This document shows positions 4,947-64,000 of a stretch of 64,000 nucleotides of DNA, piece after piece. The translations under genes were made by a program, and so were the position numbers. This stretch comes from Octopus vulgaris (lineage: Eukaryota): contig OX597823.1 in NCBI GenBank assembly GCA_951406725.2, forward strand, positions 34,658,001 to 34,722,000, read 5' to 3'. Below the pieces are notes generated by a model. That model made no database searches, had not been told where the DNA came from, and was given only the letters and a program-made list of their open reading frames with translations. Within the stretch, counting starts at the first letter, position 1. Each line of letters starts with the position of its first letter.

Positions 4947-5354
4947 ACTGAGTTTCAAAAACTTCAAATAGAAAGACATGGCTTATGTCACAACTGTCTT
5001 GCTTCTGACTAGTGTTTGAAGCTTGTAGGGAGTTCATGGCTTAAATTAGTACATGTTTTGAATAAGTCACATGGCTGGACTTAGAAATTTTTGTAGGCTG
5101 TAGGTTAAGGCGGACTGAACTGTGTCAGCCTTAACTTACAATGCTAAATAGTGTCACTTGATACTAACAAACCTACAAAAATTTCTAAGGACCAATCATG
5201 TGACTATCCTCTACCAATCAAATCATATTCCAAACATATACTAATTTGAGCCATGACCTCCCTACAAAAATAGAGTGAGCTTCAAATACTCGTCAGAAGC
5301 AAGACAGCTGCGACATAAGTCACGTCTTTCTATTTGAACTGTTTGAAAATCAGT
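4947..5354. repeat. Imperfect ~400-bp fold-back inverted repeat
   Basis: Arm 4947-5100 is the reverse complement of 5170-5354 with indels (e.g. GAAAGACATGGCTTATGTC / GACATAAGTCACGTCTTTC). Confidence 0.85.
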
Positions 5355-62101: not shown

Positions 62102-62259
62102 TTACACACAGACACACGCACATGTTATTGTAGAGTGAGAAAGAGACAATAAAATAGGGATGAAGAGGGGGTATGATATCTGATAGAGAAAGTGTATATA
62201 TATATATATATATACACTTTCTCTATCAGATATCATACACACTTTCTCTATCAGATATC

Positions 62260-62542: not shown

Positions 62543-63073
62543 TATCATTTGGCGTAAAGACAGCGATAGACTGTGTGAAGTGAAATGACTTTCGCGTCGG
62601 TCAGAGAGACCACACCCTGATATGGCACCAGAATATGAAAGGCGAGTTCCTTTCCTATCTCACTTTCTGAGATTTTCTGTTTTTTACTTCTTTATTTTTA
62701 CTGCCTTTCTTAACATCTGAACTAGTTATTCTTTTACTTGTTTCAGTCATTTGACTGCGACCATGCTGGTGCACCGCGCCTTTAGTCGAACAAATCGACC
62801 CCAGGACTAGTTTTTTAAGCCTTGTACTTCTTATATCTGTCTCTTTTTCTAATTTACAGGGACGTAAACACACCAACATCAAGCGATGGTTGGGGGACAG
62901 ACACACAAATACATACACTTACACATACACGATGGGCTTCTTTCAGTTTCCATCTACCAAATCCACTCACAAAGCTTTGGTCGGCGCGCAGCTATAGTAG
63001 AAGACACATGGCCAAGGTGTCACGCAGTGGGACTGAACCCGGAACCATGTAGTTGTGAAGCAAGCTTCTTACC

Positions 63074-63291
63074 GAGATGTACTCGCATAGCAAGTAATTT
63101 GATCTGAGATCGTGTGCTGAAACGAAAACAATTGCAGCGTGGAAGGTGTTTATAAGCCATTTAAGAAACACACAAAAGCCGTTCGATTCACTTCAACATT
63201 TAAGTTTAATTTGTCAAAATATTTTCGTCGCTAAAATCCGCGACCTGTTCACTGACAAAAATCCGTGCTGCACATGAAAGTCCAAATCTGT
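63074..63291 (-). mobile_element. 218-bp insertion with 12-bp TSD carrying a hammerhead, inside a CORE-SINE head
   Basis: TSD AAGCTTCTTACC at 63062-63073 and 63292-63303; the SINE resumes after it. Confidence 0.8.
63210..63259 (-). ncRNA. Minimal type-I hammerhead with G3-C8 compensatory core
   Basis: TTTGTCA-GTGAACA-G-GTCGC-GGATTTTA-GCGAC-GAAA-ATAT-TT-TGACAAA: 7-bp stem I, 5-bp stem II, palindromic AATATT stem III. Confidence 0.75.
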
Positions 63292-64000
63292 AAGCTTCTT
63301 ACCATACAACCACTAAGCAATTAGCGATGAGCTCATCCTAAAATAGGCAACGAGTATCAAAATTAGACTGAATTGTTATTATCAGTCCGAATGTGATGCA
63401 CATTCGAACTGGCGAACAGGCTACTCACAGCATTCTGTCATGGAGAAATATACCTCGCTTGTTGACAAATGGTGCGTCAACAAGATCGGCTCGCAACGCC
63501 ATTTACCTAGACTGTGAAATACTAACATTTCGGAGTAATTTATCTCTTCATCGGTCACCTCATCATCCCCTCTGTCTTCGTCTATAAATTGGTGTGATAG
63601 ACTGTCTCACGCATGTCAAACCTTTTTTCACTAGCGCCTTGTTTCTTTTTCAAGCCCTTCCCCTTCCTTACTACGATTCGTGTCGCTCATTTTTTCTTTC
63701 TTTTTTTTTTTTTCAATCTACATATATTAAGGTCTGGCCAGAGTATTTTAATTCCGGGTTGTAGTGTGACGCGGGTAACTGCTTTCCACAGCATCACCCT
63801 ATAAAAAAACGATTACTACAAGCTAAGATGCATTGTATTCAGCTGTTTATTTACGTATTCATCTTGGGCGCATATAAGAGAGAGAGAGGGTGAGCGAGGG
63901 AAAAAGAGAGAGATGACGATGTTTTTATTGCGATTGTAGCTAACAAGCAGTTTATAATATTTTTCTTCGAGTTAATAATTACAATACAAAGACTAAAAGC

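Follow-up and report, generated by a model that had tools for sequence, protein, structure and literature searches.

A hammerhead-type motif with a G3-C8 core pair in the leader of an octopus Penelope-like retroelement

A stretch of the Octopus vulgaris genome (the window: 64,000 nucleotides of contig OX597823.1, positions 34,658,001 to 34,722,000) carries a short insert, in the minus strand of which a first-pass annotation had read a hammerhead ribozyme with core positions 3 and 8 exchanged, G3-C8 in place of C3-G8. The locus raises the question of what kind of element brought this motif and whether such a core still serves a self-cutting RNA. The answer that we favor, with a probability of roughly 0.6, is that the insert represents the truncated end of a Penelope-like element (PLE), a kind of retroelement, and that the hammerhead in its leader, G3-C8 throughout the family, is likely still a slow self-cutting RNA, predicted to be assisted by dimerization or by a protein.

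The motif lies on the minus strand and has the layout that had been described, with stems I and II, a palindromic helix III and the core GUGAACA:

63210 to 63259, minus: hammerhead-type motif, type I minimal, G3-C8 core (sequence reading, fold, covariation with five homologous motifs)
63259-63253 / 63216-63210, minus: stem I (sequence reading)
63252 to 63246, minus: core from G3 to A9, with C8 at 63247 (sequence reading)
63245, minus: extra G after A9, contained without comment in the layout of the first-pass annotation
63244-63240 / 63231-63227, minus: stem II (sequence reading)
63226-63224, minus: GAA (sequence reading)
63223-63218, minus: helix III palindrome, 6 nt, all AU (sequence reading)
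63217, minus: U17; predicted cut between 63217 and 63216 (U-U-U site)

The residues U4, G5, A6, A9, G12, A13 and A14, the A15.1-U16.1 and G10.1-C11.1 pairs and H17 are all present. The motif departs from the literal C3..G8 consensus, and its positions 3 and 8 form a Watson-Crick pair. Both stems form in a 61-nt minus-strand fold (z = -3.49), which none of 200 shuffled sequences equaled; the plus strand folds as well (z = -4.25), as expected of any inverted repeat. For a nearly identical copy, the stem pairs have probabilities of 0.69-1.0 within the 208-nt leader. The palindromic helix III that dimers would use is present, yet weak. A helix closing the 5' and 3' ends, seen in one fold, had a probability of 0 in another copy and was dropped. 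No sequence match was found in the PDB, and an Rfam scan of the motif returned no hammerhead at E<=10. Because the C3-G8 motif of a sister element (below) was missed by Rfam as well, this result is uninformative on the swap. The expectation that CUGANGA searches would overlook such motifs holds for descriptors with a fixed core, to which entire families are invisible. The loss amounts to about 11,000 arms in excess of the control here, and to about 1,000 for an A3-U8 family.

Parent element and copy ends

The insert splits a host repeat, and its parts are the following:

62930 to 63316 (approximate bounds), minus: host repeat with a tRNA-like head, split by the insert; six uninterrupted site copies in the window
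63062 to 63073, plus: left copy of the 12-bp target-site duplication (TSD); its end shares a 4-nt microhomology with the element 3' end
63292 to 63303, plus: right copy of the 12-bp TSD, direct repeat
63074 to 63272, minus: 5'-truncated end of a PLE, youngest subfamily, with pseudo-long terminal repeat (pLTR) leader, hammerhead, start of the open reading frame (ORF) and tail
63074 to 63160, minus: first 29 ORF codons, ATG at 63160, in frame with the reverse transcriptase (RT) ORF of full-length copies
63074 to 63129, minus: PLE tail between two preferred 3' ends (putative RT start sites, one near +145 and one near +207), from the 3' ends of 101 arms
63274 to 63291, minus: 18 bp of filler at the 5' junction, which the remaining top BLAST copies lack

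The 12-bp repeat is a true duplication, since the 12-mer occurs once in each of six further host-repeat copies within the window. We take the host repeat to be an octopus short interspersed nuclear element (SINE). Between the TSD copies lie 218 bp, made up of about 200 bp of element and the filler, whose best match in the other DNA compared is 11 nt only. The insert is 99.5% identical to its closest other copy.

The genome search covered 2.8 Gb in 227 contigs. Judging from its sequence, the insert is the truncated end of a young autonomous PLE with an RT and, at the C terminus, a GIY-YIG endonuclease, because the unit adjoins the ORF on both sides, its ATG is in frame and its two 3' ends resemble RT start sites. 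The parent has an open frame of 1,025 residues with RT motifs and a GIY-YIG domain, which exceeds the Pfam cut-off at residues 915-1005. The RVT_1 match is weak and occurs in 3 of 22 homologues, while RT motifs are recognizable in the protein, and the best protein match is named 'Reverse transcriptase domain-containing'; the top match with a name comes from Octopus vulgaris. By inspection, the endonuclease contains a CCHH motif with two Cys within the GIY-YIG core and two His downstream. The linker ahead of it, C-X3-C-X2-C, is of the Neptune/Nematis type; a CX2-5CxxC linker and (TA)n targeting are given as features of these groups in the pertinent part of PMC8557442. A tree that included no reference Nematis RTs places the element apart from the genome's second PLE group. 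The element may belong to the Nematis clade, a label that is our guess.

In 29 of 30 loci the unit follows the GIY-YIG stop at a distance of 917-1,231 nt and has the orientation of the ORF. It runs directly into the ORF start at L170, L169, L181 and L184, and the pLTR unit flanks the ORF on both sides in L162/L170. The ATG at 63160 shares the frame of the RT ORF, so that 29 of its codons are present in the insert; the motif lies 92 nt upstream of the start codon, with the predicted cut 56 nt before the AUG.

The ends of the copies were read from 101 arms, which were obtained with a pattern placed beyond the cut on its downstream side (8,914 genomic matches; the first 100 listed and one neighbor). 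All come from a single contig, within its first 35 Mb, and 78 of them reach the core. Their 3' ends are bimodal, with 48 at +137..+162 and 53 at +198..+209. Of the arms with a tail (51), 24 terminate in (TA)n or other simple repeats, 20 have duplications of 8-14 bp and 7 have neither, so that such TSD-like repeats are found in 20 of the 27 tailed copies outside (TA)n. Some PLEs have an intron in their pLTR. Just ahead of the common 5' end is a motif (L107:1501-1522; 1,010 genomic matches) that resembles a branch point with a splice acceptor and also reads as an initiator-like start site; a shared upstream exon, that is, a spliced first exon, was sought ahead of this end and none was found. The base preceding the start was examined for a cap-templated G and is G in 8, C in 8, T in 5 and A in 2 of 23 arms.

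These data bear on the possibility of an independent small element (a retrozyme, a SINE or a hairpin DNA transposon) that excises its own RNA by means of the ribozyme. Most copies are indeed short, have a common 5' end and often form hairpins. However, the unit belongs to an autonomous PLE and includes its start codon, the copy ends fit two internal RT start sites and not the cut, and long copies have the same two-arm layout as short ones, inverted 5'-truncated arms included. In addition, a plus-strand B-box-like word varies at a core position in 44 of 97 arms. This explanation is largely refuted, and we regard it as very improbable. A miniature inverted-repeat or hairpin DNA transposon was rejected on the grounds that the arm ends differ, truncation is on the inside and the parent is an RT element, and a non-LTR retrozyme because the arms are dispersed, single or inverted, include the ORF start and do not form head-to-tail monomers. 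Tandem arrays, which the first-pass annotation had suggested looking for, are not typical of the family. Its view of a retro-insertion with a 12-bp TSD stands as far as the TSD and the retrotransposition are concerned, while the discrete element that it proposed gives way to the end of an autonomous PLE.

Two other candidates for the parent were rejected, namely a PLE that neighbors copies at L032 and the GIY-YIG families found by the genome search, and the paired matches of L124/L125 are segmental tandem repeats, not full-length elements. Several further features of the copies were recorded. At L185, seven to eight tail-less arms stand in tandem ahead of the ORF start, at a spacing of 170-190 bp. 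In the youngest subfamily (L101/L107; equivalent to 63273-63214 of the window), an upstream ATG at +2 opens a frame of 19 codons, the stop of which is the UGA right after the predicted cut; this frame of the leader is not the same in older subfamilies. At L050:1572-2117, an uninterrupted dCMP-deaminase frame on the opposite strand begins some 50 bp away from the 5' end that one element copy has there. Elsewhere in the window, at 62167-62244, a near-perfect inverted repeat surrounds a (TA)n core; it resembles a miRNA hairpin and scores below gathering thresholds.

The 3-8 pair across copies and relatives

To count G3/C8 cores, a motif pattern was used that left positions 3, 8 and 9 free. It has 6,315 exact genomic matches, compared with 0 in the control; among the 100 of these that were listed, 94 are G3..C8 and 0 are C3..G8. 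A looser pattern has 12,069 matches against 1,080. In the 101-arm sample, which was not selected on the core, G3 is found in 74 and C8 in 73 of the 78 arms that reach it. When arms from all loci examined were pooled (219), three subfamilies of 117, 50 and 52 arms, with divergences of 2.1, 2.6 and 4.6%, all had a G3/C8 majority. The copies for which the first-pass annotation had proposed a search exist in thousands, and G3/C8 is their consensus. In assembled contigs of four runs from four organism codes, no core position has a variant at >=5%; variants occur in loop II, at stem II CpGs and at one stem I site, where they give a U.G wobble. Between subfamilies, 4 of 8 loop II sites have changed, compared with 1 of 42 in core and stems (U-A to a U.G wobble; p = 0.001).

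The nearest sister element, at 54% identity, groups with the family in the tree (support 99/96 and 99/98). Its motif, at the equivalent place, has C3-G8, a compensated G-C to A-U change in stem II and C at position 9, and shares the extra G, the 6-nt helix III and U17 with the insert. Such motifs were found in 28 of 30 sister loci, and 37 of 41 are identical. The presence of C3-G8 at the equivalent place of homologous elements establishes that the double swap is genuine. This sister PLE is very young (L281-L310; G000:C19 near 14.37-14.39 Mb), with frames of up to 1,312 residues and a tandem spacing of about 4.6 kb.

Further relatives came from metagenomes, where nine of 13 loci were examined by a scan behind the ORF with positions 3, 8 and 9 free. 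The relatives L311, L313 and L315 have C3-G8 and L312 has U3-A8; the L311 motif (4965-5022) was parsed by eye and the other three by scan. In a motif-only, unguided alignment of the six homologous motifs, both partners vary in 11 of the 13 pairs, with a covariation of 0.908 (0 of 500 shuffles; slid controls <=0.23). Position 3-8 is C-G in four, G-C in one and U-A in one of the six, while G12, A13, A14, U4, G5 and A6 are invariant and the extra G is kept in all. By parsimony, C3-G8 is probably ancestral and G3-C8 derived.

Other pairs occur in more distant families. A distant PLE group of this genome has U3-A8 motifs, the commonest form of which was found in 11 of 30 GIY-YIG loci; U3-A8 is also present at L032. 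A family of this distant group has A3-U8, with 994 genomic matches within 2 mismatches and A3/U8 in 99 of the 100 exact matches listed. As far as sequences can tell, all four Watson-Crick 3-8 pairs are therefore family states within one genome, which argues for selection on the active-site pair. A search with a loose pattern for additional G3-C8 families (S..S helix III) gave 352 matches against 810 in the control, which is noise. The A3-U8 family (L084:2046-2085, G000:C4:868558) has a stem II of 2 bp and a GC-rich palindrome. A young PLE family with intact frames of 781 residues was seen at L070, L075 and in many genome-search matches; its U3-A8 motif lies some 75 nt short of the 3' end. In addition, the 3' ends of L079 and L085 belong to a PLE family with GCAA where GAAA is expected.

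Activity of the motif

A number of observations weigh against a motif that still cuts. In five of the nine metagenome loci no motif was found, although three of these have <=215 nt behind the match. The stem covariation is partly circular, because the six motifs were chosen by a stem descriptor; the selection used the stems but not the 3-8 pair. The sister and L312 motifs have C9, and L311 has U15.1-A16.1 replacing A-U, so the clade tolerates core changes that are expected to slow cutting. The constraint on core and stems compared with the rest of the untranslated region (UTR) is not significant (p = 0.14). The genome contains 224 matches with G8, and 95 of the 100 listed are G3.G8; G8 is found in 9 arms out of 219, modestly more than the C-to-G background (17/970) would give (p = 0.04). 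Since some insertions carry G8 in both arms, unpaired cores may still have moved. C3-G8 was absent among the 100 of 224 G8 matches listed. G3.G8 was rejected as an ancestral intermediate, as the nine such arms are scattered over all subfamilies without shared diagnostics.

The G3.G8 copies in all three subfamilies and the insignificant constraint relative to the UTR would fit a decaying relic, in which the source of the family acquired both bases accidentally and the spread of the element does not depend on them. The relevant section of PMC8557442 describes great success for a PLE clade that lacks canonical hammerheads. We nevertheless consider such a relic improbable: every family that could be parsed is Watson-Crick at 3-8, although the pair has changed independently at least three times (to G-C, U-A and A-U from C-G), and the stems are perfect while loop II varies.

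The ends of the copies and the predicted energetics count against cutting as well. The predicted cut is the start of 0 of the 101 arms. Starts fall at -5..+10 in 49 arms and at +11..+22 in 23, while 4 arms extend upstream, 10 begin inside the motif, 2 at +55/+56 and 13 beyond. Because the arm ends show uncut templates, the copies were made from uncut RNA. The starts at +55/+56 belong to the two arms of one insertion (L230:495-771), which are separated by AT-rich filler and begin <=3 nt from the cut, no more than chance among truncated arms. In the models, pairing in helix III brings almost no energy (-0.2 kcal/mol, or -3.8 if extended), and the predicted minimum-energy fold of the self-dimer differs from the active dimer. 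An extra G at this position is strongly detrimental in a viroid hammerhead, according to the corresponding part of a review (PMC3705267), and the PLE consensus in the PMC4209133 supplement has H there; one motif in the rows of that supplement, from Nasonia, has G. The hammerhead had been called intact, a word that is too strong, as the extra G, U17 and the AU-only helix III predict weak activity.

It is conceivable that the hammerhead fold with its 3-8 pair is retained as a binding or folding element for the protein of the element, serving template choice or translation control, without meaningful cutting. This possibility is rather unlikely in our estimate. It agrees with the absence of arms starting at the cut and their preference for -5..+10, and with the weak-activity features and the C9 or 15.1-16.1 changes in clade members. 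It also agrees with two results in the portion of PMC11167929 on a lizard element, in which catalytic mutants left in vitro insertion unaffected and RNA-seq ends at the cut were not seen. On the other hand, G12, A13, A14, U4, G5 and A6 are invariant in the six motifs, the 3-8 pair forms in the active conformation only, as PMC3884650 states in the part concerned, and both L230 arms begin close to the cut.

The favored reading, a leader hammerhead that still cuts slowly, suggests the following course. Transcription would start about 23 nt before G3. The RT of the element would then prime either 145 nt or 207 nt further downstream and copy uncut RNA, and this combination would explain the thousands of copies of about 150-200 bp, often in inverted pairs. 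Cleavage at +58/+59 would strip the leader from a fraction of transcripts, or split tandem read-through RNA into units, and would not be required for insertion. Lasting selection on cutting at such a side step would hold positions 3 and 8 paired, yet permit the pair to flip. The part of PMC11167929 on processing reports that the C3G/G8C double mutant of a PLE hammerhead partly restores cleavage, that cleavage needs the PLE protein and that RNA left unprocessed is the main substrate for insertion.

If all four 3-8 pairs are fixed in recently active families even though insertions copy uncut RNA, the ribozyme may be selected for a step outside integration, a reading that we consider less likely than not. 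In its boldest form, this would be a deliberately slow switch that removes the leader and sorts transcripts between translation and reverse transcription, tuned by G3-C8, the extra G and U-U-U. The template ends of the family, in any case, record integration from uncut RNA.

Comparison with known systems

The PLE hammerheads of Cervera and de la Pena 2014, as presented in the main sections of PMC4209133, resemble the present motif in their location in the pLTR, the extra nucleotide between 9 and 10.1, the G10.1-C11.1 pair, the short palindromic helix III, the common U17 and a low predicted activity. Their copies are likewise mostly dispersed, with some close inverted pairs. In these same sections the core pair is C3-G8 or U3-A8 and the extra nucleotide H, whereas here they are G3-C8 and G. 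None of the supplement rows covered has G at position 3, and no cephalopod motif was met there, the word 'octopus' being absent from supplement file 2.

The closest mechanistic parallel is offered by Poseidon PAc of Anolis (Frangieh et al. 2024, PMC11167929). There too, in the experiments bearing on this point, two RT start sites inside the ORF start define a tail, the RNA template is uncut and the hammerhead lies beside the start codon. PAc has C3-G8, with G3-C8 only as an engineered rescue, while G3-C8 is natural here; it is cut 26 nt after the AUG, compared with a predicted 56 nt before it; and it belongs to a different PLE group, whereas the octopus element has a CX3CxxC linker. Besides this work, the mutant series in PMC3884650 also contains G3-C8 as an engineered variant.

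A compensatory 3-8 change in nature is known from the core variants of Perreault et al. 2011 (PMC3088659). The section of that paper on these variants names U3-A8 alone, while G-C, C-G, U-A and A-U are each a family consensus in this genome. The non-LTR retrozymes (bioRxiv 10.64898/2026.07.22.740005), according to the portion describing their organization, are small units that do not code for protein, are related to pLTRs and carry a type I hammerhead. They form tandem arrays, unlike the dispersed single or inverted arms here, which end at RT start sites and keep the ORF start. Our literature searches found no natural G3-C8 or A3-U8 and no cephalopod PLE hammerheads, although Lunse et al. 2017 and Przybilski and Hammann 2007 could contain such variants; PMC6962438 gives Rfam match counts only.

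The vehicle is thus ordinary and the core unusual. PLE hammerheads and natural U3-A8 pairs are already known, and a natural G3-C8 as a family consensus, for which we found no paper in the literature as far as it was covered, is apparently new. The family is a natural, many-thousand-copy form of the textbook C3G/G8C rescue mutant, and its close sister in the same genome provides a built-in control.
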